Source: Enterobacteria phage Aplg8. From it: DNA of 64,000 bases. The position numbers and the translations under genes were made by a program. The notes beneath the pieces are model-generated. The model ran no database searches. It was not told the origin of the DNA and was given only the letters and a program-made list of their open reading frames with translations. The stretch is from sequence record NC_054902.1, one strand, 5' to 3'. Below are positions 2,508 to 45,874 of the stretch, piece by piece (the first letter of the stretch is position 1; each line of letters opens with the position of its first letter).

Positions 2508-2657
2508 TTACTGCATGACTGTGATAACTGTCATGATAACACGTTGAATTCCGAACGCAAGAAGACCTCCTGCTACGGCTGGAACAACACCTAAACCCGC
2601 CAGTAAAATGCTACCGGATACTAATGCAGCGCTTGTAATACCTATGAATGGACTCAT
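2508..2657 (-). CDS. small hydrophobic protein (49 aa)
   Basis: hand-translated MSPFIGITSAALVSGSILLAGLGVVPAVAGG...; its ATG overlaps gene 52 TGA stop (ATGA). Confidence 0.45.
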   Translation of the reverse strand: MSPFIGITSAALVSGSILLAGLGVVPAVAGGLLAFGIQRVIMTVITVMQ

Positions 2658-3982
2658 TTGATTTCCTCTAAATCTTTAGTGTATTCGGTAACTACATCAG
2701 TAGTTTTCCAATATTCGTTTTCTTCTTTCTTAGCTTTAGCTTCTTCAGCAAGTTTCTTTGCTTCGTCGGAAGTCATATGAAAAATATTCATTCCGACTAG
2801 TTTATCAACATAAGAAGAATACATCTCAATTTTAGAAAGTTCTTCGGTCAGTTCTTTACGAGTTTTACCTTGAACAACAATTTCACCTGAAATTACTTTC
2901 TTAATGAAATGTGCCTTGGCAAAGGCTAAACGAAAAGCTGACTCAGTTTCTTTGATTTTGTTATCAATTCGTTTTTGGACATAAGTTTTACGAACTTCAA
3001 CAAAGTCTTTAATTAAATCAACTACGTTATCGTAAACTTGCAGTTTTCCTTTCTCATTAATGACGGTAATATTCTGAGAACGACGCTCAATCAACCCGAA
3101 GTCTTTCATAATTTTTGCATGGCGTTCTTCTTCATTATCGCTCAAAGAATATTCTTTACGGAATTTAACTTTGAATCCAAAACCATGCTCACCACAAGCA
3201 TCATCCCATGTAATGAAGCCTTTATCTTCAAGTGGGTCTAAGATTTTACTCACATAAGTTTCACGATCATACTTATACGGAATCTCAGTGATATGCATTT
3301 GAGTTCGTGAAGTAAACTTATATGTTCCACGAATTTCATATTGCCCATCAATTTCAACGACTTCACCACGAAATTCTGGGAATTCTACCTTCGGTTTAGT
3401 TACTTTCTTTCCTTGAAGAGCTTGCAGTACAGCTTTCTTAACAGAAGAAACACTATGAGGAAGAATGTAAGTTGCATAACCAGTTGCAATACCGGAAACG
3501 CCATTAAGAAGAACAGTAGGAATAATAGGCAAATAGAAAGCAGGCGGAATGTGTTCTTTATCTTGATGTACCGGAGCATATTCAGTATCTTTATATACGT
3601 TATAGAAATTTTTACTTACACGAGCAAAAATATAACGACTTGCTGCTGCTTTTTGGACGGTACGAGAACCGAAGTTTCCTTGACCATCTAACAAAGGAAA
3701 GTTATTATTCCAAGTGTTAGCCATCAAAGCCCCCGCATCTTGTGCAGAGTTTTCACCATGGTGATATCCAAGGTCCGCTACACCACCTGCAATAGAAGCG
3801 AGTTTGTGAAACTTATCTTTATTTCCTCGTGCCAAATCAAGAGCTCGAGCAATAACAAATCGTTGAACTGGCTTAAATCCATCAATCATATTTGGAATAG
3901 CACGATTTTCAACCGTGTACATAGCATAAGCCAATGCTTCATTATCAATGATACTTTTTAAATCGCGATTATTCAGTTGCAT
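2654..3982 (-). CDS. 52: DNA topoisomerase II medium subunit gp52 (GyrA-like)
   Basis: 442 aa, same length as T4 gp52; GyrA/ParC-like N-terminal motifs (FKPVQRFVI...); position between motA and rIIB. Confidence 0.9.
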   Translation of the reverse strand: MQLNNRDLKSIIDNEALAYAMYTVENRAIPNMIDGFKPVQRFVIARALDLARGNKDKFHKLASIAGGVADLGYHHGENSAQDAGALMANTWNNNFPLLDGQGNFGSRTVQKAAASRYIFARVSKNFYNVYKDTEYAPVHQDKEHIPPAFYLPIIPTVLLNGVSGIATGYATYILPHSVSSVKKAVLQALQGKKVTKPKVEFPEFRGEVVEIDGQYEIRGTYKFTSRTQMHITEIPYKYDRETYVSKILDPLEDKGFITWDDACGEHGFGFKVKFRKEYSLSDNEEERHAKIMKDFGLIERRSQNITVINEKGKLQVYDNVVDLIKDFVEVRKTYVQKRIDNKIKETESAFRLAFAKAHFIKKVISGEIVVQGKTRKELTEELSKIEMYSSYVDKLVGMNIFHMTSDEAKKLAEEAKAKKEENEYWKTTDVVTEYTKDLEEIK

Positions 3983-3986
3983 AAAT

Positions 3987-4127
3987 TTACCATACTAGTG
4001 AATGTAGTGCCATAATAACATCAGAAATGAAAAGCACGACTTGAATTAATCCAAACATTACTCCATAATATAGTGCTATTAATAAAATAGCAAGGGCTAA
4101 TGAATAGCCCAAGATTTTCTTAATCAT
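3987..4127 (-). CDS. small hydrophobic membrane protein (46 aa)
   Basis: hand-translated MIKKILGYSLALAILLIALYYGVMFGLIQVV...; fills gap upstream of gene 52. Confidence 0.35.
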   Translation of the reverse strand: MIKKILGYSLALAILLIALYYGVMFGLIQVVLFISDVIMALHSLVW

Positions 4128-4278
4128 TAGTAGATAACAACACAAATGTTAAATATGCACACATACCCTGAGCTAAAGCTTGCGAAAACACACTGCTGGC
4201 ATCAATACAGATAGTTAAAACACATGCTACTATCCAACAAATAAATGAAATAACTCCTAATAATTTTGCAATATTCAT
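4120..4278 (-). CDS. small membrane protein, paralogue of Ac (52.1-like)
   Basis: MNIAKLLGVISFICWIVACVLTICIDASSVFSQALAQG...; GAGGAG SD 6 nt upstream; shares SVF.QA.AQG motif with ac product. Confidence 0.55.
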   Translation of the reverse strand: MNIAKLLGVISFICWIVACVLTICIDASSVFSQALAQGMCAYLTFVLLSTND

Positions 4279-4288
4279 AATATTCTCC

Positions 4289-4444
4289 TCAACTATTTTT
4301 AGAACCAATGTACGCGAATAATGATAAAATCGCTAATACGCCCTGAGCTGATGCTTGCAAAAATACTGAAGTTTCTCCAGTTATTACTGTTCCGATGCAT
4401 AAAAAGAACCAACAGAAAAAGGCTATACCGTGAACAAATTTCAT
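4289..4444 (-). CDS. ac: Ac-like small membrane protein (acridine sensitivity locus), 51 aa
   Basis: hand-translated MKFVHGIAFFCWFFLCIGTVITGETSVFLQASAQGVLAILSLFAYIGSKNS; position between 52 and stp as in T4. Confidence 0.6.
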   Translation of the reverse strand: MKFVHGIAFFCWFFLCIGTVITGETSVFLQASAQGVLAILSLFAYIGSKNS

Positions 4445-4451
4445 ATTTTCC

Positions 4452-4532
4452 TCACTGGCGTCCGAAGACGCCTTTGGTTTTAAGATTGTTACGATAGAAC
4501 TGCATCACGTGTTCGTTGTGGAAATTACTCAT
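4452..4532 (-). CDS. stp: Stp peptide (26 aa), activator of host PrrC anticodon nuclease
   Basis: hand-translated [26 protein letters not shown] matches T4 Stp as remembered; ATG overlaps ndd stop (TAATG). Confidence 0.85.
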
Positions 4533-4990
4533 TAATATGCCTGCAAAACGAATTTAAAGTTATCAGCCAACATACGGTTCATTTCTTCAAGTGTTTGATA
4601 CTCAGAATGATGATTACGAGTAAACGCCAAAGCTAACTGACCTTTACCAAATCCTGTCGTCAGAGGTTTCATCTTAGAAGCAGGCAGATAAAATACTGTG
4701 TATGGAACATTGTTATTTGCAATAGTACGTGCAAGCTGAGACCGACGTTGACGAATATGACTTAGAACTGCACTGAATCCTTGCTTAGAACGCTGATTAC
4801 CTACATAAAATCGTGCAGACACGCATGGATTACTAAATGGACGACCATCTAATTTACTTACTAAAAAGTAAAATCCAGGTTTAGATAAAATATCTTTATG
4901 CGGAGTTCCCAAAAACCATTCACCACCCTTGATTGTACCAATAACAGTAGCACCTGCGTTGTTCAGATCAGTAACAGTCATATATTTCAT
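4532..4990 (-). CDS. ndd: Ndd nucleoid disruption protein
   Basis: 152 aa from [13 protein letters not shown] with GAGGAAA SD; position after stp as in T4; track ORF start trimmed to SD-supported ATG. Confidence 0.8.
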
Positions 4991-5048
4991 ATTAATTTCC
5001 TCTAAATTATTTTCTACTCCAAGGCCGCATGAATACGCGGCCATTAAA

Positions 5049-5264
5049 TTAATCGTCACAGTCGACGCTCAATTCCCAAAACTCTTCTACGGTATAAGTT
5101 TCAGTATCATTTTCAATACAGAAACGTTCATTACTGTTATTTGCTAAAGTAGCATTAACTGTCGGTTTCTCGCTAGTGCTCTTAAGAGGTGAAATACGAA
5201 TTAACTGATCACCGTTATCTAAACAGAAAATTTCACCAACTTTTACATCTTTAAAACTTTTCAT
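5049..5264 (-). CDS. hypothetical protein (ndd.1 position)
   Basis: 71-aa ORF, acidic C-terminus. Confidence 0.5.
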
Positions 5265-5379
5265 AATTCACCTCAAGGAGTATAAAATCCAAATGCAGTT
5301 GTTGACCATCCCATCCAATACGGAAAATTTGCACCAATGTAAAACATAAGAATATAAAACCAAATGTTTAGTAAATTCA

Positions 5380-5598
5380 TCATTTTACACCATTCCAAAT
5401 TGTTTCAACTACGGATTTTAAACCATTTTGATGAATATCCATTCCGACTACCGCCATCAAATAGATTCCAACTACAACTGAACCTAAGGCAAAAATCAGC
5501 ATGAAAATGAATAAAGCCGGAAAAATATTATCGAAAAACCATTCAATAAATGTAAAAGCACTGCGTTTACGCTTCATATTTTCCTCACATAAATCCAA
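5380..5598 (-). CDS. hypothetical membrane protein
   Basis: 72-aa ORF with long hydrophobic segment. Confidence 0.45.
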   Translation of the reverse strand: MDLCEENMKRKRSAFTFIEWFFDNIFPALFIFMLIFALGSVVVGIYLMAVVGMDIHQNGLKSVVETIWNGVK

Positions 5599-5698
5599 AG
5601 TAAACGTTTAATACATCAATCATTAAAACGATTGGGAATATACTCAAAACTACTAGTATTATAACTACATTCCATATAGCTTTAACAATCTTTTTCAT
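5585..5698 (-). CDS. small hydrophobic protein (37 aa)
   Basis: MKKIVKAIWNVVIILVVLSIF...; GGAGGAACAG SD; track ORF N-terminus is read-through of promoter/leader. Confidence 0.45.
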   Translation of the reverse strand: MKKIVKAIWNVVIILVVLSIFPIVLMIDVLNVYFGFM

Positions 5699-8088: not shown

Positions 8089-8099
8089 AATTTTCCTTA

Positions 8100-10277
8100 T
8101 TAGGCCGCAAGGGCCTTCATAGTTTTAGCGATTTGGGAAACTTCATCATCACTTAAAGAACTGCGATATCCGATGAAGTCGGAAACAATACGGAATTTCT
8201 TGGTAAACTCAGCAACCATTTTATCACTGTTTTTTGAAGCATTATTTGATAATACATCAAAAAGATTAGTTACTGTCCAGATGTCATGACCGATGGTATC
8301 TTTTCCACCATTAAAATATACACCGCGCAATGAACTAACTATATTAGCGAGTCGTGTATATTCTTCAGAAACTTCATCTGTACTGAAGTACTTCATCATA
8401 AAATCTAGTTCAGGATACTTGATAATTTTATCAATATATCGTTGAGCTGAACTTGAATAACCTACATACTTATCATAATCTACATCATCAAAAGCATCTA
8501 CATATAAATCACGCAAAGCTTCAAAAATACATTGGCACTGACCAAGCTCTTTTACCTTTTTCTGCAAAAGCGGACGAATAACATAAAATTCATTAATGCC
8601 AATAAGATTAGCCATACGAATCAAAATATTCATAGATGGATGACAAAGTGATGTAGTACCATCCATAGAGAAAATATCAGAACGATGCATATACGCTACA
8701 TAACCAGTAATTTCATCTGCTTCTGACGTAAGTGTAAATAGTTCCTCTTTTTCCCAGCGCCCGTCTTTAATTTCAAACTTAAATGCTGTAGCAGCTTTAG
8801 GACGAGGAGCTTTACTTTTAACTACCTTTGGAATATAGCTTTTAACTAAAGCTTCAATTTCTGACAAATAATGAATGTTAACTTCATCACTTTCAAACAT
8901 CGCCATAATATCAGGAAGTAAATCAATCTGCGATTCTACTTCTGGGTTAATAAACAAAAGGCGTTCGTTATGATGAATATTCAAAGTGTTATTAAATTCA
9001 CTATCATCTAACGCATGTGCTAATCCACGAACAATATTAACACGATTTTTAATATTATCAATAACGATATTAATTTTTGTTGTATTAATACCAAACAGAC
9101 GATAACTTGATGCAACGGCTGAAGTTTCATGACTTTGCTTAATGCGCTTCAGTCGAGGGTCAAGATTTACTTCATACACAACTCCTGCATTGCATAACTT
9201 ACTGTCAGGTTCAAACATGCTCTGCATCTTTTTATATGACAGATTTTTAGTCGTGAATTTGACTGAATTACTAATCATATAATCTCGAGCAGAATACCCC
9301 ATCTTCATTAATTCACGATATGTGTGACGAGGAGATGTAGATTCTTTAAATCGTTTTACATCTTCATTAAATGCTTTCTCACTAAGCTCTTTAACTCGTT
9401 CAATAATATTTTTACGAGTGCGATCATCTAATGAAAGAGCTTCACGTGATGGAGCAATATCAAGTGAACCCATTGGAAATTTAATGTAATTCACTTCATT
9501 ACGAATGCTTAGCCAGTTACGGTCTCTAATAACACCATCGATAGGATAAACAATACCACCATAGATAGCATATAATCCACCACGATCAGGCCAGTATCTT
9601 TCTGGATTTACACCGTAATAGTCATCAAAATCCGGAAAATAGTCAATTTCACGGTCAAGACCATTAATGATAGCCAAATCTTTGAACGGCCGCATGATAT
9701 AAGAAACTTCATAAGCAAAGTTTCTAAAGTCTTTTTCTTCAACTGGAACTACGATTTCAATACCAGTTTTATCATCTGGACCCATTTCTTTTACGAATGT
9801 AGGTTTAATCTGTGGTCCATCGCCATCCATGTAAGCTACATAACCACGAATTTCACCTTTATGATACGAAGTAATACTAAATGTATCAGTATAACTAAAC
9901 GGAGATTTAGAACCTAAACCAAACCCGCCAATAAAGTCATTAGATTCAGCCTTAGATGAACTGAAGTATGAATTATACAGACCAGGAGAATTATCATCAC
10001 CCTGAATATCAAAATCACTCATACCCGGACCAAAATCTCGACAAACAAATCGTGGATCTAATCGTCCTGGAACTTGAATGATAAATTTTTCAGGATTTCC
10101 ATTAAGTGCATGAGCATCAATCATGTTAGTAATCAATTCACGGACTACTGCGCGAATCTTGTTTGTATACAAATCAGATGACAGAATTTTAAATACTTTA
10201 GGATTTGCTGCGATGCTAAATGCTTTTGATTTAGAACCATTGCCAAGAATTGTTTCTTTTTCAGTGGTGATAATCAT
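8100..10277 (-). CDS. rIIA: rIIA protein
   Basis: 725 aa (T4 rIIA length); HATPase-like N-terminal domain; 11-nt rIIA-rIIB junction. Confidence 0.92.
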
Positions 10278-10287
10278 AATTTCCTCA

Positions 10288-10491
10288 TTAATTCATATTA
10301 CGCTTAATAACTTCAGCAACTTCTAGTAGTTCATCTTTAGTTGCGGTGTCTGATTGAATTTTATCTCTAATATCCTTAAAGCGGTTTTTAAACTCTTCGG
10401 CTTCTCCCATATCGAAAAAGCGTTGAATGATTCTATATTCTCGATGAACTGCTTTATCAAAAAGTTCTAAATTTACTTTATATGATTTCAT
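10288..10491 (-). CDS. hypothetical protein rIIA.1
   Basis: 67-aa ORF directly upstream of rIIA, as in T4. Confidence 0.6.
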
Positions 10492-10516
10492 TTCAATATC
10501 CTCATTTGCCCAATTA

Positions 10517-10546
10517 ATTATACCACATCCTTGTGGTAAAGTAAAC
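10517..10546 (-). promoter_or_regulatory. early promoter (GTTTAC / TATAAT)
   Basis: minus-strand GTTTACTTTACCACAAGGATGTGGTATAAT; -35 at 10546..10541, -10 at 10522..10517. Confidence 0.7.
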
Positions 10547-12366
10547 TACTGGCTCATCCATTCTTTGCGAAGGTCAGCATTATCTCCCATGAGCATTTCA
10601 AAAAGCTCTTTCCAGTTCTCAGGAAGTTTAACAACATCATATACTGGATTTTGAATCATCTCACGATATTCAGATTTTTCCAAAGAGCCAAGTCCTTTAA
10701 TATAACGGATGCTATGTTTAGGTAGAGCATCTTTGGCACTCTCATATTCAGCGACTGTATAAAACCATTCTTGTTTTTTACCGACCTGAGCGATGATTAC
10801 AGGAGTTTTGACAAAGCGAATTCGTCCTTGCTCAAACAATTCTGGCCAATTACTAAAAAACCCGAGCAGAGAAGGATAAATGCTTCCTAGACCATCATGG
10901 TCAGCATCAGTCATAATAGCAATATTGCGATAATTCAAGTTTTCAGCTTTTTCACCAAGAACTAGACCAGTGATTGCGCAAATATCAAATAGTTCTTTGT
11001 TTTTAAGCATATCGGCATATGACATACCCCAGCTATTAAGAACTTTACCGCGCAATGGATAACCACCATGAAGTTCTTTATCGCGAACATCAATAAGATA
11101 TCCGATAGCTGAATCACCCTCAGTCAAGAACAATGTAGTGTCAGCATCTTTACCGCAAAGATTCGCTTTGATATGTTTGTGAACCTTAGCTTTAGAAGCC
11201 TTTTTAGCTGCTTTAGTTTCTGCTGCTTTTTCTGCCGCCAATTTACGAGCCAAAGCAGCTTCAATAATCGGCATTAAAATTGCTTCATTATTTAGAATAG
11301 CGCGTGAAATCTTTTTAGCATCAAGTTGAATATGACTACGGATTTCACCAAATGGAGAAGTCAAACGCTCTTTAGTTTGAGAATCAAATCGCATGTTTTT
11401 CATATCACGAACAAACATAACGATAGTCAAACATTCTTTGACACGCGCTTTGGTTACATCAATTTTGAACTTACGTTTGATTTGTGGAATAAGGTCTTCA
11501 CAAATATCATCCATAACACAGTCAATGTGATGGCCACCATTCTTAGTATGAATGTTATTGACGTATGTTAATTGACGAAAACCATCCGGTGAACGACCAA
11601 CCGCAATAGAACAATTTTCTTGTTCTTGAACGATAGCATGTTCATCATATTGGCGTGCGTATTTCTTAAAATTACCCTGAACCTTTTTACCATTAAAGGT
11701 AAATTGAATATCAGGATAAACAACAGCAAGTGTTTGGAGACGATCTAGTGTAATGTCAAGATAAACTTGGGACAGCTCATTAGTTTCAAATGACATAAAA
11801 TCAGGAATGAAAGTAACACGAGTTCCTTTCCATTTTCCAGGAATATCTTCCCATGATTTATTTTCCATGCCATTTGAGCAACGAACTACAATATTATTTT
11901 GACCATCGCCAGTTTCACCGACAAACATCACAGAAAAAATGTTTGTCAAACTAGAACCAACACCGTTCATACCGCCAGTGACGCGTTCTTTATCATCACC
12001 GAAGTTACCACCTGCTTTTGGAATAGTCCATGCGGCAACAGGACCAGGAATTTCTTCACCGGTAGGTGTTTTAACCATCGCTTGTGGAATACCGCGACCG
12101 TTATCTTCAACTGTTACTTGATTGTTTTTAATAGTAACATTAATTTTATTTGCGAATTTAAACTTAGTACGAATACCTTCATCTACTGAGTTATCGATAA
12201 TTTCATCAATAAGCTTAACAAGACCAGGTACATACTGAACACTTTCCCATTTACCAAACAGAAAGCGCTCATGCATTTCATTAGCAGAAGAGCCAATGTA
12301 CATGCCACTACGCTTTTTGATATGTTCAATATCGCTCAGAATTTTAATTTCATTCTTAATCATCAC
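10546..12366 (-). CDS. 39: DNA topoisomerase II large subunit (GyrB-like), uninterrupted gene 39 (39+60 fused)
   Basis: 606 aa; N-terminal GHKL ATPase matches T4 gp39, C-terminal 120 aa match T4 gp60 (...NVAIMTDADHDGLGSIYPSLLGFFSNWPELF...) in one frame. Confidence 0.93.
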   Translation of the reverse strand: MMIKNEIKILSDIEHIKKRSGMYIGSSANEMHERFLFGKWESVQYVPGLVKLIDEIIDNSVDEGIRTKFKFANKINVTIKNNQVTVEDNGRGIPQAMVKTPTGEEIPGPVAAWTIPKAGGNFGDDKERVTGGMNGVGSSLTNIFSVMFVGETGDGQNNIVVRCSNGMENKSWEDIPGKWKGTRVTFIPDFMSFETNELSQVYLDITLDRLQTLAVVYPDIQFTFNGKKVQGNFKKYARQYDEHAIVQEQENCSIAVGRSPDGFRQLTYVNNIHTKNGGHHIDCVMDDICEDLIPQIKRKFKIDVTKARVKECLTIVMFVRDMKNMRFDSQTKERLTSPFGEIRSHIQLDAKKISRAILNNEAILMPIIEAALARKLAAEKAAETKAAKKASKAKVHKHIKANLCGKDADTTLFLTEGDSAIGYLIDVRDKELHGGYPLRGKVLNSWGMSYADMLKNKELFDICAITGLVLGEKAENLNYRNIAIMTDADHDGLGSIYPSLLGFFSNWPELFEQGRIRFVKTPVIIAQVGKKQEWFYTVAEYESAKDALPKHSIRYIKGLGSLEKSEYREMIQNPVYDVVKLPENWKELFEMLMGDNADLRKEWMSQ

Positions 12367-12390
12367 TTATCCTCGTTTGGTTTCGGGAAT

Positions 12391-12417
12391 ATTATACTCC
12401 GGTAATCATAAAGCTAA
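12391..12417 (-). promoter_or_regulatory. MotA-dependent middle promoter upstream of gene 39
   Basis: minus-strand TTAGCTTTA (MotA-box-like) - 12 bp - TATAAT. Confidence 0.5.
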
Positions 12418-12433
12418 AGGCCCGAAGGCCTTT
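12416..12433 (-). other. UUCG-tetraloop RNA hairpin (AAAGGCC UUCG GGCCUUU)
   Basis: perfect 7-bp inverted repeat with cgaa loop on plus strand, intercistronic. Confidence 0.65.
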
Positions 12434-12702
12434 TATTTAAAACGAATAGTTGAATCCTTAAAGAACAGCCCAGAACATACTGTTCCTTCTACTTTCTGCC
12501 CAGTAGGTCCAATAGCACGAAATCCAGTATGTTGGAAATCATTTTCAGAACAACCAAACCAATTATATCCAGTGATTTCAATATTAGTAAAACCACTTGA
12601 AGATAAAACTTTGGTTGCATTATCAGCATCAGTACATCCTGCTAAAGACACTGCTAATACTAATGCCGCGATAGAACGATTAATATATTTCATAATTTTC
12701 AC
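12433..12702 (-). CDS. putative lipoprotein
   Basis: 89 aa; signal peptide with lipobox LAGC near N-terminus. Confidence 0.55.
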   Translation of the reverse strand: MKIMKYINRSIAALVLAVSLAGCTDADNATKVLSSSGFTNIEITGYNWFGCSENDFQHTGFRAIGPTGQKVEGTVCSGLFFKDSTIRFK

Positions 12703-13070
12703 TCAAATTTAATGGCTTGAAGAAGACTAATAATTCTCAAGCGACTTCTTTCATCTTTAACTGTAAAAGAAAGAGGGTCACCAGATTTCATAGTAATAGT
12801 ACATTCAAAATCAAAATCTTCTGTGACTTCTTCGAAGAAGTCAAATTCTTCATCATAAATTAGAACATTACTCTGACAACTATGAAGAATTTTTCCATCA
12901 TTTCCAGATGCTGTACTAATCATTGTAACATTATGACCTTTCATATCTTCAACGATAAATTCACTAGTCAATATTACGGCATTAATAGAACTATTCCTAT
13001 TACTAGCAGAAAGTAGATATTTCTGTTCTTCACCTTCACGAATACGATATTTCTTACCGATTTTAAACAT
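12699..13070 (-). CDS. hypothetical protein
   Basis: 123-aa ORF, 4-nt overlap with downstream gene. Confidence 0.55.
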   Translation of the reverse strand: MFKIGKKYRIREGEEQKYLLSASNRNSSINAVILTSEFIVEDMKGHNVTMISTASGNDGKILHSCQSNVLIYDEEFDFFEEVTEDFDFECTITMKSGDPLSFTVKDERSRLRIISLLQAIKFE

Positions 13071-15257: not shown

Positions 15258-15752
15258 TTAATTAAGGATATTAATTACTGCACTACGTGGAACTACACTA
15301 AAATCACCTGCATGAACAACGTTCAGAAGTTCAACACCGTCTTCAATCCACTGATCAGTTACCCATCCACTCACTGGACCTGCGAACGGACGTCGAATTG
15401 AAACAGCTTTACACAACAAATCAGTAGGCTCAATAGGCTTAACCAGAGTACCGTACATACAAGCGATATCCATATCAATACAGATGTCTTTAACGGGTTC
15501 TACTTCTTCAATCAACAGTTCAAAGTCGGTGCTTGGAAGGGCGGTAGTAGAAATTGTACCGTATGAATTTTTAATTTCTAAGAATAACCAAGGGCCTTCA
15601 GCTTGTTTGATGAAGTTAACAATAGTGAAACTATTACCTTGAGTGGCGCCTAAAATTTCACAAAACTTTTCATAAGCTCGCACTGAAGCACCATACCAGT
15701 TGATTTGCTTTTCGTCTTTCAGGATGTAAGTAGCTGTAGTACTGATATTCAT
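15258..15752 (-). CDS. hypothetical protein, paralogue family member (MotB position)
   Basis: 164 aa; C-terminal motif WVTDQWIEDGVELLNVVHAGDFSVVP. Confidence 0.6.
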   Translation of the reverse strand: MNISTTATYILKDEKQINWYGASVRAYEKFCEILGATQGNSFTIVNFIKQAEGPWLFLEIKNSYGTISTTALPSTDFELLIEEVEPVKDICIDMDIACMYGTLVKPIEPTDLLCKAVSIRRPFAGPVSGWVTDQWIEDGVELLNVVHAGDFSVVPRSAVINILN

Positions 15753-15764
15753 GATGTTTTCCCC

Positions 15765-16268
15765 TTAATCTAAGGTAATAAAGCCTTTTAATTCGGCATG
15801 TGACTTGCGGAACATTACTTGATGACCGCCAATGATAACTTGGTCATCAGGTACTTCGTATACAGCGAGATAAAATCCTTTAGAAGCTAATTCTTCACGC
15901 TCTTCTCGTGTGAACCATCTCATCATATCATATTCGCTAGCGAAAGCAAAATGATAAAGAGCTATAAACCATCCTGGAATATAGTGATCTACGCCTACAT
16001 ATTCTTCTTTCTCAAAATTAGTATTAATTGCTATATTAGCATTTTTAACTAATAATTTGTCTTCATGCGGCACAGGAATTCTTTTATTATCATTACTATG
16101 ATGCATAAAATTAGGTCTGTCATAACCTACGTGTAATAACCACTCTTCACTCCATGAATCTATTATACTCCTGTACGGAGTTATTTGAACACAAAGATCT
16201 CGACGTATTGTTATAGCATCTTCATAATTAAGAATACTAAATGATGATTCAACACGATAAATTTTCAT
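15765..16268 (-). CDS. hypothetical protein
   Basis: 167 aa from MKIYRVESSF; track ORF N-terminus is upstream leader. Confidence 0.5.
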   Translation of the reverse strand: MKIYRVESSFSILNYEDAITIRRDLCVQITPYRSIIDSWSEEWLLHVGYDRPNFMHHSNDNKRIPVPHEDKLLVKNANIAINTNFEKEEYVGVDHYIPGWFIALYHFAFASEYDMMRWFTREEREELASKGFYLAVYEVPDDQVIIGGHQVMFRKSHAELKGFITLD

Positions 16269-16331
16269 TTTATTATCCTCAGTAGCTATGGTGTTATAAT
16301 ACCACAACTAACCGAGGAAGTAAACAACTTT

Positions 16332-17015
16332 TTATCGTTTTGTTGGAAGAGACAGAGGATCGCACTCTTCCTCTGACGGAGCATCTTCAAGACCCATAGC
16401 GTATCGCAAAGCATACTTCATCATCAGGATGTCTTTCGCACAGTCATGAATAGAATCATGCGCAACGAATCCATCTAAGGTTCCCTTTGGAAGAGGACAT
16501 GTTGTCATATCACGAACAAGCAGAAGTGCTTCAATTCTGGTACGAATATCACGCTGATTCCAGAATTTACATGGTTCTAACTTAAATGTGTCAAGCTCAT
16601 TCTCAGAAACACCATTAAGACGTTGAATATCACGAATGAGATCGACTAAAATTGGAAAATCAAACGACATTCCACGGCACCAGCCTTGAGATTTCCAAGG
16701 ATCGATATTATGTGCATTGATGTAATCATTAAATTTTGCAATACCGTCGATAGTGCTTACATCTTCATCGGATGGTGCAATATTTTTTCGAGCTTCAGGA
16801 GATTGATTTTTCCACCATTCGATAGTGCTTTTAGTAAAAAGACGATGTCCTTTTTGGCTTTTTAAATCAAATTTGATTTTAATGCCACGTGAAACTAATT
16901 CATCAAACGTTTCAACTACTTCTGGGTTAGGGTCAAAAGCAATTACAGCCAAATCAATAACAGCTGCTTTTTCACCGCTTCCCATTGTTTCAAAATCTAT
17001 AATAAAATCAAACAT
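16332..17015 (-). CDS. dexA: DexA exonuclease A (DnaQ-like 3'-5' exonuclease)
   Basis: 227 aa (T4 DexA length); DEDD-type exonuclease motifs (FDFETMG..., HDSIHDCAKD); position next to dda. Confidence 0.85.
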   Translation of the reverse strand: MFDFIIDFETMGSGEKAAVIDLAVIAFDPNPEVVETFDELVSRGIKIKFDLKSQKGHRLFTKSTIEWWKNQSPEARKNIAPSDEDVSTIDGIAKFNDYINAHNIDPWKSQGWCRGMSFDFPILVDLIRDIQRLNGVSENELDTFKLEPCKFWNQRDIRTRIEALLLVRDMTTCPLPKGTLDGFVAHDSIHDCAKDILMMKYALRYAMGLEDAPSEEECDPLSLPTKR

Positions 17016-17257
17016 TAAATTTTCCTTGCTAAATCGCGAATTTGACCTACAGTATAATCTTGGATATAAACTTTATTAATAGGCTCATCAATAAATTTTG
17101 CCATAGATTCAATATCTTTTTGCATCTCTTCAAGACTGTATATTATCTTTAAAGCTTTTTCGCGAATAGTAATATTTTCAGGACCAGAATTTTTCTCAAT
17201 GACAGCTTTAACATTTGTCATAAGAGATTTAAACTGCTGCAAACTTAATTCAATCAT
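17015..17257 (-). CDS. small hypothetical protein (tandem paralogue a)
   Basis: 80 aa from MIELSLQQF; start overlaps stop of upstream ORF (ATGATTGA). Confidence 0.45.
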   Translation of the reverse strand: MIELSLQQFKSLMTNVKAVIEKNSGPENITIREKALKIIYSLEEMQKDIESMAKFIDEPINKVYIQDYTVGQIRDLARKI

Positions 17258-17510
17258 TAATAACCGCCTTATAAAGATGGCTAATTTCACCTAAAATGTA
17301 ATCACTGATTGTAACAGTTTTTACTTCACCACAAAAGAATTCTAACGCAATTAAATCTCGTTCAATTTCTTCTAATTGAAGCATTAACTTGCCAGATTCA
17401 ATTTTTACATTTCTACGATTTTTACTATAAGCTATTTCATAAATTTCGCTCACTTTATCTTGAAGCAGATAAAACTGGTCTTTAGTTATTTCCACGAATA
17501 GCTTCCTCAA
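17250..17510 (-). CDS. small hypothetical protein (tandem paralogue b)
   Basis: 86 aa; shares QF...LEE...DY..G.I pattern with ORF a. Confidence 0.45.
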   Translation of the reverse strand: MRKLFVEITKDQFYLLQDKVSEIYEIAYSKNRRNVKIESGKLMLQLEEIERDLIALEFFCGEVKTVTISDYILGEISHLYKAVIND

Positions 17511-17742
17511 ATTTAATTAGTAATTTACAGACACTTTCATCTAGTGTAATTACCGTATCTGTATTACTGTGATATGATTGTTTTTCAATTCGTTTAATTG
17601 CTAATATAGTATCACTTATAAGATAAAGCTTATGAAGGAGCTCAGCTCCTGTTACCATAACATCGAGATTATCTTGCTTATTAGTATGCTTCCTTATACC
17701 ATCTATTAGACGATTTAAATATTTTGAATTGATGTTAATCAT
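17482..17742 (-). CDS. small hypothetical protein
   Basis: 86-aa ORF between dda and dexA. Confidence 0.45.
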   Translation of the reverse strand: MININSKYLNRLIDGIRKHTNKQDNLDVMVTGAELLHKLYLISDTILAIKRIEKQSYHSNTDTVITLDESVCKLLIKFEEAIRGNN

Positions 17743-23374: not shown

Positions 23375-23580
23375 TACAAAAAGCCTCTTTTGAATTCGAC
23401 TTGCTTCTCACCATAATCATATCGAATCTCTGCATTAAATTCGACAGAACCATCTGCGTACATCATAAATGAATGCACAACAACTTCTGTAGACCATGGT
23501 TGTAGTTCATATTTCTTCATTACATGCCGTGAAATGATAATATCTAAATCTTCATTTGGTTTAATCCAACGATTTAACAT
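23374..23580 (-). CDS. hypothetical protein
   Basis: 68-aa ORF downstream of an early promoter (GTTTAC...TATAAT at about 23595..23630). Confidence 0.5.
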   Translation of the reverse strand: MLNRWIKPNEDLDIIISRHVMKKYELQPWSTEVVVHSFMMYADGSVEFNAEIRYDYGEKQVEFKRGFL

Positions 23581-23644
23581 AGTGCTCTCCTCTATAAGAT
23601 AATTCTATTATACCATACTCATTTTGGAAAGTAAACCATTTAAA

Positions 23645-23671
23645 TGAAAAAAGGACTCCCGAAGGAGTCCT
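23645..23671 (-). terminator. intrinsic terminator after soc
   Basis: hairpin aggactcc-cgaa-ggagtcct 23652..23671 followed on mRNA by UUUUUU. Confidence 0.6.
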
Positions 23672-23676
23672 TGAAT

Positions 23677-23922
23677 TTATTCACCAGTTACTTTCCACAA
23701 ATCTTCATTTGCAGCAATCCATTCAGTACGTTGATTTTCTTCATATACTGTAGAATATGCTGCTTTTTCTGAAGGGAATGTCTGATAATGAGCACCAGAA
23801 ATTTTGTGAACGTCAGAATAAAGAGGGAAAGCTACAGAAATTTCCTTTCCTTCAATTTTCTTATTTCCATCTAATTTCTGCTCAAATGTTTTGATATTAA
23901 CATAACCGCGAGTACTAGCCAT
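23677..23922 (-). CDS. soc: Soc small outer capsid protein
   Basis: MASTRGYVNIKTFEQKLDGNKKIEGKEISVAFPLYSD... recognised as T4 Soc; 81 codons. Confidence 0.93.
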   Translation of the reverse strand: MASTRGYVNIKTFEQKLDGNKKIEGKEISVAFPLYSDVHKISGAHYQTFPSEKAAYSTVYEENQRTEWIAANEDLWKVTGE

Positions 23923-23935
23923 GTAATTCTCCTTT

Positions 23936-23943
23936 TATTTAAA
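23936..23943 (-). promoter_or_regulatory. late promoter-like TTTAAATA box upstream of soc
   Basis: minus-strand TTTAAATAAAAGGAGAATTACATG; one mismatch to the TATAAATA late consensus. Confidence 0.45.
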
Positions 23944-24148
23944 TTACATGATTATTTATAATAAATTCTCGCGGAACGTTAAAATACCCAATTTTAGTTA
24001 ATATAACAATATCGCCGTTAATAATTACCGGAGAATAATCGGCTGGAGCATTAAATTTCCAATGGGCTCTAATATTATATCCATCAGAACCAAATGCTCG
24101 ACTAGCCGGTCTCCCGGCTTTTTGCCACGCGTAGAAATCAAATTTCAT
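23939..24148 (-). CDS. hypothetical protein (soc.1 position)
   Basis: 69-aa ORF between soc and 56, where T4 carries segF. Confidence 0.5.
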   Translation of the reverse strand: MKFDFYAWQKAGRPASRAFGSDGYNIRAHWKFNAPADYSPVIINGDIVILTKIGYFNVPREFIINNHVI

Positions 24149-24339
24149 TTTGAATGATCTATAATTAATTTTAAATCTTCTTCACTGACAAAAATTTCGT
24201 CAGGACCTTCTATAACTTCAACCATACGAAGTTGATTAGTTAAGAGCTCACATACGAGCTCCTTGTTATAATCTTTAAATAGCTGGTCAATACGTTTCTT
24301 GCGGGCTTTCTTAAGCTGGCGTTTATTTAAACGAGCCAT
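24145..24339 (-). CDS. hypothetical protein (soc.2 position)
   Basis: 64-aa ORF. Confidence 0.5.
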   Translation of the reverse strand: MARLNKRQLKKARKKRIDQLFKDYNKELVCELLTNQLRMVEVIEGPDEIFVSEEDLKLIIDHSK

Positions 24340-24857
24340 TAATAGCCTCTGTCTTGACGAGCGAAGTTTTCAGCATTTTTCAGATAATAAAGTTTAAATA
24401 TTTCTTCAGCTGACATTCCAAGAGCAATGAATTTATTCATGAAAAAGTGAAATTGATCAATCAGTTCAAATTTAATTTCAAGTTGATCTTCAGGAGATAA
24501 ATCTTGAATTTTCTTGGATTGCATTTCAGAATAACGTTTCTTCCAAGGTTTCCATACAGCAGAAGCTTCTTTTTCACCATTACTCATACCACCAAGAGAA
24601 GTATATAGCTCGCGAGTTTCGTCTGCGATATAATCGTCTTGGTTTCGCAGCCAAGCAAGAACTTCTCCTGCAGTTTCAAGTGAATCAGGATGACGATTTG
24701 TTTCTGGTTTATCATTAGCCAAACGAATCTGTAAATGCCGCTGCATATCAAGCATAACCTGCAGTGGGTCAATATTGTGCATAATATTCTCAGCATATGC
24801 ACGATTTGCTTTATCAACACCTTCGATCAAATGAGCACATTCATTAAAGTAAGCCAT
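24339..24857 (-). CDS. 56: gp56 dCTPase/dUTPase (MazG-like NTP pyrophosphatase)
   Basis: 172 codons from MAYFNECAHLIEG; MazG-like motifs; C-terminus ...YYLKNAENFARQDRGY. Confidence 0.85.
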   Translation of the reverse strand: MAYFNECAHLIEGVDKANRAYAENIMHNIDPLQVMLDMQRHLQIRLANDKPETNRHPDSLETAGEVLAWLRNQDDYIADETRELYTSLGGMSNGEKEASAVWKPWKKRYSEMQSKKIQDLSPEDQLEIKFELIDQFHFFMNKFIALGMSAEEIFKLYYLKNAENFARQDRGY

Positions 24858-24891
24858 TATTTTTCCTTTCAATTCATGGGTTAGTAGATTA

Positions 24892-24917
24892 ATTATACAA
24901 TAAATATATAAAGCAAT
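24892..24917 (-). promoter_or_regulatory. MotA-dependent middle promoter for gene 56
   Basis: minus-strand ATTGCTTTA (perfect MotA box) - 11 bp - TATAAT. Confidence 0.65.
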
Positions 24918-24928
24918 AAGGAGGACAT

Positions 24929-25129
24929 ATGATACAAAAATTAATGGCACTTGTTAATGCCATAAAAGGTAATAAGAAACGTATAGCTTTTACTATTTCT
25001 GCTATGGTAGGAATTTTACTCTGGAACTTTATTTTATCACCTGTTGCAATTGCACATGGTATTAATATTCCAGTAGTTACTCTTGATACATTCGTAGATT
25101 TAGCATTTGCTTTAGTTGGGTTAATTTAA
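24929..25129 (+). CDS. small hydrophobic protein (66 aa), plus-strand
   Basis: AAGGAGG SD 5 nt before ATG; AATAAATA late-promoter-like box at 24897..24904; two hydrophobic segments; fills otherwise non-coding 56-61 gap. Confidence 0.5.
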   Translation: MIQKLMALVNAIKGNKKRIAFTISAMVGILLWNFILSPVAIAHGINIPVVTLDTFVDLAFALVGLI

Positions 25130-26154
25130 ATCTTAGCATATTTAGATAACCTCATTTTAGCCATCAACCCCTGGGCAATATTATTTTTCATATATTCCAT
25201 AATTTGTTCAGGGGTTGCACCTTCCTTTCTAATCATATCATTAACATCTTTTGATTTCCAGGGAGATTTATCCCAAAACATAACTCTTTCTCCTGCATCA
25301 ACTAATTTAGTCATTCGTTTGATAGTGTCAGGATGACGAGGTTCATTATCTAAAACCCACACACGTCTATCTTTAAATGGAACAACTTCTAGGTCTAATT
25401 GACCACCCGTAATAGCTATACCATTTTCAATAAAAAGTGAATCTATAGGTCCTTCTAGAACATATACATCACCATCTTTAACTCGTTCGACTCCATAGAT
25501 TTTTGTTGCTTCAGGATAAGCTTTGATGGTGATATATTTTTGGGGAGCATCTTTCTTTAATGCACGTCCTTGAAAAGACTCAGCTTTTCCATTAGCATTA
25601 TAAATTGGAATAACAAGACGAGGCTCAGAAATTTCCTTTTTGTATGTTCCCGGTGCTATGCTATTAACTAATTTAGGCCATTCGGTTGTAAACCAAAGAT
25701 ATTTCCATTTATCCTTTGGAATACAACGAGCTTTTACATATTTTATAATTGGATGGTCTTCCGCCAGTTTATCTAATCTAACACATGACGGAAGAGATTT
25801 AATTATTTTCTTCTCAGGTTGCTTAGGAAGTTCTTTAGGTTTTTCTACTGGACGACTTTTACCTTTTTCTTTTCTTATTTCAAAGATATACTCACGATAT
25901 AAATCAGGTTCAAACTCCTTTAAATATATTCCGATTGGTGCATGATAATTACAGTTATAACAATGAATATTTCCTTCATTATTATCACCATAATACCATC
26001 CACGAGCTTTATTCTGGTCGGTTTTTGAATCTCCACAAACAGGACATCTAAACCGCAATTTAAAAGTTGAACTATTATTTACTTGTGTGAATTTAGGTAA
26101 ATGAGCTAATGCACGGTATGCAAACTCATTATCAATCCAAGGTATTGATGACAT
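25126..26154 (-). CDS. 61: gp61 DNA primase
   Basis: 342 aa (T4 gp61 length); N-terminal zinc ribbon CPVCGD...CYNC; Toprim-like core. Confidence 0.9.
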   Translation of the reverse strand: MSSIPWIDNEFAYRALAHLPKFTQVNNSSTFKLRFRCPVCGDSKTDQNKARGWYYGDNNEGNIHCYNCNYHAPIGIYLKEFEPDLYREYIFEIRKEKGKSRPVEKPKELPKQPEKKIIKSLPSCVRLDKLAEDHPIIKYVKARCIPKDKWKYLWFTTEWPKLVNSIAPGTYKKEISEPRLVIPIYNANGKAESFQGRALKKDAPQKYITIKAYPEATKIYGVERVKDGDVYVLEGPIDSLFIENGIAITGGQLDLEVVPFKDRRVWVLDNEPRHPDTIKRMTKLVDAGERVMFWDKSPWKSKDVNDMIRKEGATPEQIMEYMKNNIAQGLMAKMRLSKYAKI

Positions 26155-29602: not shown

Positions 29603-30758
29603 TTAACTGTTCGAGGTCAGTTTCTAAATCAGCTGCTGATTTACTTTTACTTTCTGGAGATTTAAATTTTTCAACCTTTGAGTTAATCAATTCATCAACT
29701 TCAGCTTCAACAATTTCATTACTATCAATAGCACCTAATTGATAAGCACGTTTAATAGCATCTCGGAATGGTTGATGCTTAAATAAAGGACCCCAGAATG
29801 TAGTGCAGTTGGTATCTTTTGCACGCCAAGATTTTTCTTCGCGAATCATCTCGCCGGTTTCTTCGTCAAGAAATTCACGAGCATACCAGCCATTTTTAGG
29901 TTTTACTACAAATCCTAATTCTAGAGCCATATCTAACAATCCAGAATAAGGATCGATACCACCGTCAAATTTAACATCAATAAAGAATTTACTTTTTTCT
30001 TTAACGGTACGAGATTTTTCTACATTTAGAACAAATTGATACCCCTGAAGATCAGAACCATCTTTAATCTGGCGTTTACCGATAATGAATACAGTATCAG
30101 CCGAATACATTACGCCTGTACCACCTGTCATCACGGTTTTACTAAACATTTCAATTGTTTCAATTGTATGGTTAACCGCAACGCACGGAATATTTTTAAT
30201 GCTAAAATAAGGAGTAACAATACGGAATAATGACTTCAGTGATTTAGCACGAGTCATATCTGCCACAGATTTTTCATTCAAGGCATCTTCCGTTTCTTTC
30301 TTAGAAGCCATATTACCAATTGAGTCGATGAATACTATAACCTTTTCACCACGCTCAATAGCTTCAAGCTGATTCACCATATCAATTTTCAGCTGTTCAA
30401 CTGACTGGATTGGCGTATGAATTACTCGTTCCGGGTCAACTCCCATGGATCGCAAATAAGCTGGAGTAATACCAAATTCGCTATCATAGAATAGACAAAC
30501 CGCGTCAGGATATTTGTTCAAATACGCCGCAACCATAGTCAAAGACATATTTGATTTAAAGTGTTTAGAAGGACCTGCAAAAATAGTTAAACCAGACTGC
30601 ATGCCGCCATCAATCGCACCAGAAATAGCAATATTAAGCATTGGGATTTTTGTACGGATTACATCCTTTTCATTAAAGAATTTAGATGTAGTCAGTTCAG
30701 CAGTCATTTTAGAAGTGGAAGCTTTAATCAAACGGGATTTTAAATCTGCAATAGACAT
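29577..30758 (-). CDS. uvsX: UvsX recombinase (RecA-like)
   Basis: 393 aa; sequence ...KIPMLNIAISGAIDGGMQSGLTIFAGPSKHFKS... matches T4 UvsX. Confidence 0.93.
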   Translation of the reverse strand: MSIADLKSRLIKASTSKMTAELTTSKFFNEKDVIRTKIPMLNIAISGAIDGGMQSGLTIFAGPSKHFKSNMSLTMVAAYLNKYPDAVCLFYDSEFGITPAYLRSMGVDPERVIHTPIQSVEQLKIDMVNQLEAIERGEKVIVFIDSIGNMASKKETEDALNEKSVADMTRAKSLKSLFRIVTPYFSIKNIPCVAVNHTIETIEMFSKTVMTGGTGVMYSADTVFIIGKRQIKDGSDLQGYQFVLNVEKSRTVKEKSKFFIDVKFDGGIDPYSGLLDMALELGFVVKPKNGWYAREFLDEETGEMIREEKSWRAKDTNCTTFWGPLFKHQPFRDAIKRAYQLGAIDSNEIVEAEVDELINSKVEKFKSPESKSKSAADLETDLEQLSDMEEFNE

Positions 30759-30835
30759 TCATTTTTTCCATAGGCATCATTATATTTTCCTCACTGGTTA
30801 AAGATAGAGTAATTATAACACAATAAATTTAGGCA

Positions 30836-31684
30836 TTAATCAACTGCTATTGGATGAATAGCATTAAACTTATGAAATGCTTCTGATTTTTCTTTACGCG
30901 AAACACACATGCGAAGAACCTTTAATGGCTCGTCTTCTTCACCCAACGATTTTCGTTTTTCAATATTCGACGTTTTCCAACGAGCTTGCTCTGGAAACTC
31001 TCTATTGATTTGCTCAAGCGCTCTATTATGTTTAGAATTACTACGAATTGAACTACACCCACCAGGAGCTTGCGCTTTACCTGATACAACCAGATATTTG
31101 AACAAGGCCAAATGCGGATAACCTTGATTAATTAAATTGAGAAATGCATACATATCTTCGCACAAATCAATTTTTCCATACCCAATTTGTTCTGTCGTAA
31201 GTTTTCCGAGGTCATACCATGTATTCGTGAATCCATATGAATTTTCACGATAATTACCCCAAGATGAAGTAATTTTAAAAATAGGTAGACGAGCATGGCC
31301 ATGATAATACCCGCAATCCATGGCATCCTCAACATATTGAATCAATTCATAGAACTGTTCACGAGTCAATTGATTGACTTTATCTACGCAACGACGATCA
31401 TCTCTTTTTCGCATTGAACTCATACGAATAGTAGTATCATCGTCAATCATCCAGATTCGTTGGCCTGCATACATATCAGTAATTGCTTTACGAGTACCGG
31501 CAATTCCGTTTACATCATCAGGAATAGTTATAATTTTAGCTCTAGACCCATAGGCATCATAATAAGCTTTTTCTTCATGTTCACGCACTACAATATGGGG
31601 TTCATAATCAGTCGGAAACATATCAAGGGCAGAAACTGCCCCTACACGTTGATAACTTGGAATTACGAATTGAATCATTTCCAC
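30836..31684 (-). CDS. GT-A fold glycosyltransferase, probable beta-glucosyl-HMC-alpha-glucosyltransferase (T2/T6-type)
   Basis: 282 aa with DxD-like IDDDT motif; occupies uvsX-42 slot where T4 has 351-aa beta-gt. Confidence 0.6.
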   Translation of the reverse strand: MEMIQFVIPSYQRVGAVSALDMFPTDYEPHIVVREHEEKAYYDAYGSRAKIITIPDDVNGIAGTRKAITDMYAGQRIWMIDDDTTIRMSSMRKRDDRRCVDKVNQLTREQFYELIQYVEDAMDCGYYHGHARLPIFKITSSWGNYRENSYGFTNTWYDLGKLTTEQIGYGKIDLCEDMYAFLNLINQGYPHLALFKYLVVSGKAQAPGGCSSIRSNSKHNRALEQINREFPEQARWKTSNIEKRKSLGEEDEPLKVLRMCVSRKEKSEAFHKFNAIHPIAVD

Positions 31685-32415
31685 TCACCGTTATAATCTT
31701 TTTTCACAATATGAGTTTCGCCAGTATTCCACCAATGATCAACCAAGTAAAAATGACGAGAATATACATGAAGACTTCCAACATTCCATATAATAGAACC
31801 TGCTTTATACTGACGAGTTGAATCGCCGGCATTCAAATCAGATACTAATTTATCTAATACGTATTTTTGCCATGCATAATCATTACGGAATCCGAAGACC
31901 ACGTCATTTGAGCGCATGCTTACTACTGCATTGACTTTCTTATCACGAATCAGGTACTGTACTGTATTAGTACACATGAAATCTGACATACCATCTTTAT
32001 TGTAGTCAAATTGCATGGATGGACGAGTATAAATCATGATACCACGTCGAGAATCAGGATTTTGACCAAGTTCAGCTAAACACATATCATACTGGGCATA
32101 GTTATCTTCTGACCAAATAGCCCAACCATAATTCGAGTTAATTTCGCCTTTAGAAGATGCTACCTGCTGCCAAATCTTTGGTGTTTCGCCTGGAATATCT
32201 TTGACAAACAGACTTTGAGACTTGTACCATTCAAGTTCACGCTGAATGTATTCATCATTAAGAGCGCCAAAAATAAAGGGTTCATCTGCTACAAATGATG
32301 CGCCAATAATTTCAATAGTTTTAACACCGGTTTTATCAACTACGAAATCTTTTTCTTTTAATGCAAGCCCCAAATGAAGACGGATTTCTTCAACTGTCAT
32401 AGAGTCACTAATCAT
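31675..32415 (-). CDS. 42: gp42 dCMP hydroxymethylase
   Basis: 246 aa (T4 gp42 length); thymidylate-synthase-like fold. Confidence 0.88.
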   Translation of the reverse strand: MISDSMTVEEIRLHLGLALKEKDFVVDKTGVKTIEIIGASFVADEPFIFGALNDEYIQRELEWYKSQSLFVKDIPGETPKIWQQVASSKGEINSNYGWAIWSEDNYAQYDMCLAELGQNPDSRRGIMIYTRPSMQFDYNKDGMSDFMCTNTVQYLIRDKKVNAVVSMRSNDVVFGFRNDYAWQKYVLDKLVSDLNAGDSTRQYKAGSIIWNVGSLHVYSRHFYLVDHWWNTGETHIVKKDYNGEWK

Positions 32416-37345: not shown

Positions 37346-38305
37346 TCACTTCCACTGCATTTCACATGCTAACTGAATGAAAAGATAAGCTAAATGCAAT
37401 TCAGTATTAGCTGCAATACCATGATACTGATTATTTTCGCCGACAATTTCGTACATACGAATAATACTCTGTGGAGTTACACGTGAATAGATTTCTTCGG
37501 CAAGTTTACCCACGAACCACGAATAATCGGCTGCATATTTTGGTGCTAAAGCTCTGAGTTGTTTAACATCTTTATTTTTGAGAGACTCAAGAACATCATC
37601 AATAGCACCACGATCGTTAGTAACCAGTGATAAAATACCAGCATCCAAAACACCTTTAGATGAATAACTATCGAGCTCGCCAATAGTTTTACGAAAATCA
37701 GGAAAATTCTTTTTAACCAAAGCTGCTACAACTTTCATATCAGCTATAGCAATACCTTCATGTTTACAGATTTCAGTCAATCGACGAATCATCTGCTTCA
37801 TCATTTCAATTTTATCTTCATCGGTCGGTTGACCGAACGTAATAACTCGGCAGCGTGACTGAAGTGGTTTAATAATACCATCAATATTGTTAGCAGTAAT
37901 AATAATACTACAGTTCGAACTATAAGCTTCCATAAAGGAACGAAGATGTCGCTGAGACTCTGCTAATCCTGAGCGGTCAAATTCATCAATAACGATTACT
38001 TTTTGACGCCCATCAAATGAAGCGGCGCTAGCAAAATTAGTCAAAGGACCACGAACGAAATCAATTTTACAGTCTGATCCATTTACAAACATCATATCAG
38101 CATTTACATCATGACACAATGCTTTCGCTACAGTTGTTTTACCTGTTCCTGGAGAAGGAGAATGAAGAATAATATGTGGAATCTTACCTTTACTTGTAAT
38201 AGATTTAAAGGTTTCTTTATCAAAGGCGGGAAGAATACATTCATCGATAGTAGATGGACGATATTTCTGTTCAAGAATGTGTTCTTTTTCATTTACGGTA
38301 ATCAT
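37346..38305 (-). CDS. 44: gp44 clamp loader ATPase subunit (RFC-like AAA+)
   Basis: 319 aa from [22 protein letters not shown]; Walker A GTGKTT. Confidence 0.92.
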
Positions 38306-38340
38306 AATTTCCTCATTCAAGTTTTAGTGTAAATTATAAA

Positions 38341-38352
38341 GGGCCGAAGCCC
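38341..38352 (-). other. UUCG-tetraloop RNA hairpin between 45 and 44
   Basis: gggc-cgaa-gccc inverted repeat. Confidence 0.55.
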
Positions 38353-38356
38353 TCTA

Positions 38357-45850: not shown

Positions 45851-45874
45851 TTAATATCCTCTTTGTTTTGGTTT

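Follow-up and report, generated by a model that had tools for sequence, protein, structure and literature searches.

The large (GyrB-like) subunit of the type II DNA topoisomerase of Enterobacteria phage Aplg8 is, we conclude with high confidence, encoded by an uninterrupted gene 39, the usual form of this gene in Tequatrovirus. A single open reading frame (ORF) at 10546-12366, on the minus strand of the 64,000-nt stretch of record NC_054902.1 that was analyzed here (the window), accommodates both T4 gp39 aa 1-473 and T4 gp60 aa 31-160. A preliminary description of this DNA had proposed that one uninterrupted frame holds both sequences, and the alignments agree. Nothing in the data speaks against identification as an unsplit T-even gene 39. 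Sequence comparisons also support reading the locus as the pre-insertion ("parental") allele, in which case the change would be an insertion in T4 and not a fusion in Aplg8.

An uninterrupted gene 39 is a long-known situation, to which the T4 split with its ribosome hopping is the rare exception, and the "parental" state has already been described (Uzan & Miller 2010, PMC3014915; Manning & Atkins, bioRxiv 10.1101/2022.08.31.505936). The Aplg8 locus would add one more "parental" empty MobA site to the hundreds of equivalents that are public, and a near-identical T6 gp39 has been solved by cryo-EM. Empty sites of this kind provide the comparison state for the T4 gene 60 bypass and for the spread of homing endonucleases; the main value here lies in correct annotation of the gene.

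The gene and its product

As listed, the ORF counts 606 aa from a GTG at 12366, the length given in the preliminary description. The codon right after this GTG is an ATG (12363) that has GAGG upstream at SD-like spacing, and because T4, T2 and T6 gp39 all begin MIKNEIK, gene 39 is almost certainly 10546-12363 on the minus strand, with an ATG start, 605 aa and a stop codon. The figure of 606 therefore stands for the listed ORF, and the true product is almost certainly one of 605 aa. The GTG was dropped as a start in favor of the ATG on the grounds of SD spacing and of identity with the T4, T2 and T6 N-termini. The gene is 1818 nt long, its stop codon lies at 10546-10548, and its GC content of ~36% runs across it with no break in composition. 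Chance could not plausibly account for a 1.8-kb ORF that, in DNA of 36% GC, is homologous to topoisomerases along its full length. The neighbors are those found in T4, T2 and T6, namely rIIA (8100-10277), rIIA.1 (10288-10491) and a 39.1 homologue.

The gene, its partner, and the domains and motifs of its product are as follows.

10546-12363, minus strand: gene 39, large GyrB-like subunit (T2/T6 gp39 identity, T6 gp39 structure match)
2654-3982, minus strand: gene 52, GyrA-like partner, 442 aa (Pfam DNA_topoisoIV, E=1e-76)
11917-12225, minus strand: GHKL ATPase domain, aa 47-149 (Pfam HATPase_c, E=2e-9, above the gathering score)
aa 54-62: EIIDNSVDE, GHKL ATPase domain (read from the sequence)
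aa 87-93: DNGRGIP, GHKL ATPase domain (read from the sequence)
aa 130-138: GGMNGVGSS, GHKL ATPase domain (read from the sequence)
11212-11616, minus strand: transducer domain, aa 250-384 (Pfam DNA_gyraseB, E=1.5e-13)
aa 328-334: QTK loop SQTKERL, transducer domain (read from the sequence)
10888-11136, minus strand: Toprim domain core, aa 410-492 (Pfam Toprim, E=0.0077, below the gathering score)
aa 413-419: LTEGDSA, acidic motif, Toprim (read from the sequence)
aa 436-440: PLRGK, motif in the gene 39 frame (read from the sequence)
aa 486-491: DADHDG, acidic motif, Toprim (read from the sequence)
10549-10809, minus strand: C-terminal Toprim-associated domain, about aa 519-605 (Pfam TOPRIM_C, E=4.3e-7, above the cut-off)

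The ATPase and transducer domains score well above their Pfam thresholds (HATPase_c, 38.3 bits against a cut-off of 26.4; DNA_gyraseB, 51.1 bits against 27), and the N-box and G-boxes are present. Over aa 410-492 the Pfam Toprim model reaches 16.8 bits, which is sub-threshold against a gathering threshold of 23.1. Despite this score a continuous Toprim domain with the EGDSA Glu and the DxDxD(G) metal-binding motifs is present, since both the motifs and the structural match are clear. All of the listed catalytic motifs lie in one frame, and LTEGDSA and DADHDG are found unbroken in the same ORF. Over residues 1-605, Aplg8 gp39 matched T6 gp39 as solved by cryo-EM (8ylu_C, with five more entries), chains of eukaryotic Topo II, ParE and GyrB align with the Aplg8 protein through the junction region, and NF004189, an NCBIfam GyrB subfamily model, covers residues 4-604 in one stretch (E=2.9e-68). 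The TOPRIM_C region is the counterpart of the C-terminal part of T4 gp60.

The partner gene 52 is collinear with T4 gene 52, and its product is short (442 aa) and lacks the GyrA C-terminal domain. T4 topoisomerase II relaxes DNA instead of supercoiling it. For T6, gp39 and gp52 have been purified and shown to relax DNA in an ATP-dependent manner (PMC11461880). Given 602/605 aa identity with T6 gp39, ATP-dependent DNA relaxation is most likely also the activity of Aplg8 gp39/gp52. By analogy with the T2/T4/T6 literature for both activity and stoichiometry, the two proteins would form a two-subunit (A2B2), ATP-dependent type IIA topoisomerase like those of T2 and T6.

Just upstream of gene 39, at 12405-12435 on the minus strand, a GGCC-UUCG-GGCC tetraloop hairpin precedes a T-rich stretch, after which comes TATAAT. 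A promoter/terminator consensus scan of 10200-12800 did not call the hairpin as a terminator and returned fewer promoter-like sites than were seen in shuffled controls.

The junction compared with T4 genes 39 and 60

The T4 reference was NC_000866, with gene 60 translated across the annotated 50-nt gap. By BLASTP, T4 gp39 aa 1-473 and Aplg8 aa 1-473 are identical at 466/473 positions with no gap, and T4 gp60 aa 27-160 matches Aplg8 aa 472-605 at 128/134. True gp60 homology starts at gp60 M31/N32 (MNYANVAIMTDADHDG...), equivalent to Aplg8 L476/N477, and runs to gp60 residue 160, equivalent to residue 605; E474-N475 of Aplg8 have no T4 counterpart. The preliminary description had assigned the C-terminal 120 aa to a gp60-like part; the homology holds, the length does not, as the gp60-like part comprises 130 aa. 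The junction peptide that it quoted, GEKAENLNYRNIAIMTDADHDGLG, is present at aa 470-493.

At the nucleotide level, blastn aligned Aplg8 8089-10881 with T4 1-2793 at 97.5% identity and Aplg8 10946-12695 with T4 3911-5661 at 96.6%. What lies between these alignments is 64 nt in Aplg8 (10882-10945) and 1117 nt in T4 (T4 2794-3910).

10882-10945, minus strand: 64-nt segment, third base of codon 473 through codon 494 (blastn break points and fine alignment)
10890-10891, minus strand: equivalent of the T4 50-nt gap, between Gly491 (GGT) and Leu492 (CTA), with nothing inserted

The 1117-nt block of T4 consists of a 43-aa gp39 tail, the mobA pseudogene/60.1, a 30-aa gp60 leader, 16 recoded codons, the 50-nt gap and 9 recoded nt. 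According to Manning & Atkins (bioRxiv 10.1101/2022.08.31.505936), the MobA element is 1097-1106 nt long and takes 64 nt out of the "parental" gene. It brings a tail of ~43 aa and a leader of 30 aa, together with the gap and a homologous stretch of 16 aa whose DNA identity is 67-81%; clade 1 elements add another 9 nt. The boundaries that we measured between Aplg8 and T4 are those of their 64-nt replacement. The T4 copy of codons 476-491 (NY.N.AIMTDADHDG) is identical to Aplg8 at 35/48 nt (73%) and the 9 nt after the gap at 4/9, compared with 186/200 and 198/200 in the 200-nt flanks of the block. The T4 insertion is known to fall within the Toprim domain (PMC11461880; bioRxiv 10.1101/2022.08.31.505936), and mapped onto Aplg8, the split of the gene and the 50-nt gap are both located in the domain core. 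Outside the block the proteins are alike, gp39 aa 1-473 being 99% and gp60 aa 31-160 about 97% identical between the two phages. T4 makes three subunits and needs ribosome hopping, whereas Aplg8 needs neither.

At the position of the T4 gap, Aplg8 reads GAT GGT CTA GGA AGC, unbroken, so that no 50-nt gap with a take-off GGA plus stop and a matched landing GGA follows the DADHDG Gly codon. Searches for parts of the cassette covered the entire window. With MobA of phage HY01 as the tblastn query, no mobA was found in the 64 kb, the only matches being two other Mob-family genes at 39741-40457 (38% identity) and 42154-43008 (29%), and between the topoisomerase halves at the Aplg8 site there is no mobA HNH ORF or remnant. 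The T4 gp39 C-terminal tail and gp60 N-terminal leader peptides gave no significant tblastn match in the window, and the 50-nt gap sequence gave none beyond chance words of <=14 nt. When the T4 insert DNA was compared with the whole window, its only match was the 46-nt homologous stretch of gene 39 itself (76% identity). Rfam and tRNA scans of the whole 64-kb window found nothing. The absence of mobA and of the 50-nt hop, as first described, is thus borne out by continuous codons at the gap position and by negative searches across the window. Gene 39 of Aplg8 would be translated conventionally, from the ATG at 12363 to the stop, with no ribosome hopping.

The T4 record itself is unusual at codons 326-328, before the QTK loop, where NC_000866 reads MRLIRQTKERL and Aplg8, T2 and HY01 read MRFDSQTKERL. 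In this record a 1-nt deletion is followed 8 nt later by a 1-nt insertion, and this compensating frameshift seems to be an oddity of the reference record.

Relatives and the origin of the unsplit state

Gene 39 of T2 and of T6 has the same length as that of Aplg8 (1818 nt, 605 aa) and is collinear and ungapped with it; 603/605 aa are identical in T2 and 602/605 in T6. Nucleotide divergence from T2 and T6 is about 3.3%, and residue 479 is His in both and Arg in Aplg8. Alignments with T4 genes 39 and 60 and with T2/T6 gene 39 therefore agree that the C-terminal part is homologous to gp60 and that the gene is collinear with its T2/T6 counterparts. RB51, RB68, GiZh and others share a 90-nt junction identical to that of Aplg8, and in GenBank the RB51 gene is annotated "gp60plus39 DNA topoisomerase subunit", with RB68 likewise 'gp60plus39'. 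Beyond phages, GyrB, ParE and the N-terminal half of eukaryotic Topo II show the same domain order as Aplg8 gp39 (GHKL, transducer, Toprim) and align with it end to end; human TOP2A/B and yeast Top2 match at E values of about 1e-56 to 1e-59. The curated equivalog cut-offs for the cellular enzymes lie far above the scores of Aplg8 gp39, which places it in a distinct phage lineage.

Matches to the 2.6-kb locus came from 578 phage records, of which 491 reach >=95% identity, and only 43 records carry the T4 insert (T4 isolates, RB55, RB59, HY01, vB_EcoM_112 and a few dozen others). An unbroken match to the 90 nt across the insertion site is found in 444 records, and in 23 of these, RB51 among them, the match is exact. 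The 103-aa junction peptide was unbroken in 1919 of the 1996 phage records with a match, where unbroken means >=80% coverage of the peptide in one place (a split phage, such as HY01, gives a half-length match); these records span phages of Escherichia, Klebsiella, Acinetobacter, Aeromonas, Vibrio and others. The unsplit gene is the norm, accounting for about 91% of cases in the genus and about 96% of all, with the T4-type cassette in about 9% of relatives. Over the whole region the closest matches are the Tequatrovirus phages Sf24, GiZh and slur14, at about 96.5% over 25 kb, and the phage collection contains no identical record for the wider region. The earlier view that the phage is T4-like but not T4 fits with 96.6-97.5% identity outside the insert, with best matches to other Tequatrovirus and with T4 endonuclease loci that are empty; the uninterrupted gene 39 marks the window as that of a non-T4 Tequatrovirus.

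We favor an insertion in T4 because the cellular and distant phage homologues are continuous, the recoded segment of T4 is foreign and Aplg8 has no tail remnants. The Aplg8 locus has probably never received, and in any case now lacks, the mobA homing-endonuclease cassette. In T4, this cassette takes the place of 64 nt of Toprim-coding sequence, divides the gene into 39 and 60, and supplies the 50-nt bypassed gap. Preservation of the pre-insertion state, as the preliminary description put it, accords with collinearity with T2/T6 gene 39 and with GyrB models (4-604), with the 1919/1996 records, with the absence of a tail scar and with the 64-nt replacement.

One alternative, which we regard as improbable, is that an ancestor of Aplg8 had the mobA/bypass cassette until it recombined homologously with an unsplit relative and the cassette was cleanly removed, so that the state was restored and not preserved. 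T-even genomes are mosaic and recombine freely, Aplg8 differs from T4 at many homing-endonuclease loci, and spread of the element may be balanced by loss, its progressive decay being documented (Manning & Atkins, bioRxiv 10.1101/2022.08.31.505936). However, Aplg8 bears no scar, as the tail, the leader, the diverged replacement codons and the gap are all absent; 23 other unsplit phages have the very same 64-nt segment; and the unsplit gene is in the large majority in the genus and universal in the outgroups, so that parsimony favors a site that was never occupied. A scarless loss would restore the same ancestral allele, and the claim at the level of the sequence is unaffected.

The bearing of the intact site on MobA depends on work in T2. 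According to Bonocora et al. 2011, as summarized by Manning & Atkins (bioRxiv 10.1101/2022.08.31.505936), intact MobA nicks T2 gene 39 within the 64-nt region, transfers the split and the gap together, the gap protecting against re-cleavage, and still nicks the far more diverged T4 codon copy. The 64-nt segment of Aplg8 differs from that of T2 only in codon 479 (CGC in place of CAT), and just downstream of the segment there is GGG in place of GGA. By homology with T2, 10882-10945 should be an empty homing site that holds the MobA nick site, and, because this target is intact and almost the same as in T2, Aplg8 is predicted to act as a recipient for MobA homing in mixed infection. At codon 479, CGC/Arg is the minority allele relative to CAT/CAC/His; roughly 17 nt separate it from the inferred MobA nick site downstream. 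It is conceivable that the unsplit state is actively maintained, either by scarless loss of a mildly deleterious cassette or by an R479 target allele that reduces MobA cleavage, yet we hold this to be very unlikely, because the 90-nt junction occurs in 23 other phages and the diverged T4 codon copy is still nicked.

The opposite direction of change, in which split genes 39 and 60 would be ancestral and the single gene of T2/T6-like phages a derived fusion, is effectively refuted already, and we give it next to no credence. The paper on the T4 and T6 structures leaves the direction open as 'gene-fusion' or 'gene-separation' (PMC11461880), and secondary fusion has occurred in one clade, the Campylobacter phages (Manning & Atkins, bioRxiv 10.1101/2022.08.31.505936). 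Against this, GyrB/ParE, eukaryotic topoisomerase II and 1919/1996 phage records, distant genera included, are continuous through the junction, and the known secondary fusions keep T4-type tails, which Aplg8 lacks. The T4 block also carries the signature of an insertion, a homing endonuclease together with foreign codons of 73% identity set in flanks of 93-99% identity. That the sequence is T4 DNA from which the insert was removed in assembly or editing has a negligible chance of being correct, as high similarity to T4 is all that speaks for it, and divergence from T4 is about 3% throughout the region, six other T4-specific elements are missing, two non-T4 HNH genes are present and 23 independent phage records have an identical junction.

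Other differences from T4 in the window

Besides mobA, the segF, segA, mobB and mobC genes and the nrdD group I intron with I-TevII are all absent from the Aplg8 stretch; nrdD is intronless, and no intron was detected in the window by Rfam. The loci at which T4 elements are missing, by comparison with T4, and two homing-endonuclease genes absent from T4, are listed below.

23960-24339: empty locus (T4 counterpart 15610-16270)
30746-31693: T4 element absent (T4 counterpart 23555-25497)
45841-45866: empty locus (T4 counterpart 37817-38679)
50342-50362: empty locus (T4 counterpart 42916-43518)
51638-51641: empty locus (T4 counterpart 44814-45850)
39741-40457, plus strand: HNH (Mob-family, phrog_655) homing-endonuclease gene, absent from T4
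42154-43008, minus strand: HNH (Mob-family, phrog_655) homing-endonuclease gene, absent from T4

The two free-standing HNH genes flank gene 46 (40450-42138). The first (39741-40457) is on the strand opposite to its neighbors, and its N-terminal HNH region shares 38% identity with MobA and 44% with MobB. The inserts at 39741-40457 and 42154-43008 were found in 58 and 69 phage records, respectively.

Genes for DNA modification differ as well. At 30836-31684 on the minus strand, Aplg8 encodes a 282-aa beta-glucosyl-HMC-alpha-glucosyltransferase (phrog_842, E=2e-89), a DNA-modification enzyme of the T2/T6 type, where T4 has segA and a beta-glucosyltransferase. The T4 dam gene (DNA adenine methyltransferase; T4 16825-17725) has no counterpart at 24897-24918 or elsewhere in the window. 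Gene 56 (24342-24857) shows 69% protein identity to T4 gp56, compared with roughly 96% for the surrounding genes.

Between the 39.1 and 39.2 homologues, a 123-aa ORF at 12699-13070 on the minus strand is absent from T4 (a 372-nt indel). T6 has this ORF at the same place, and T2 has a different ORF of 105 aa there. The 123-aa product matches phrog_622, a family of unknown function, and has weak similarity to a goF-like family.
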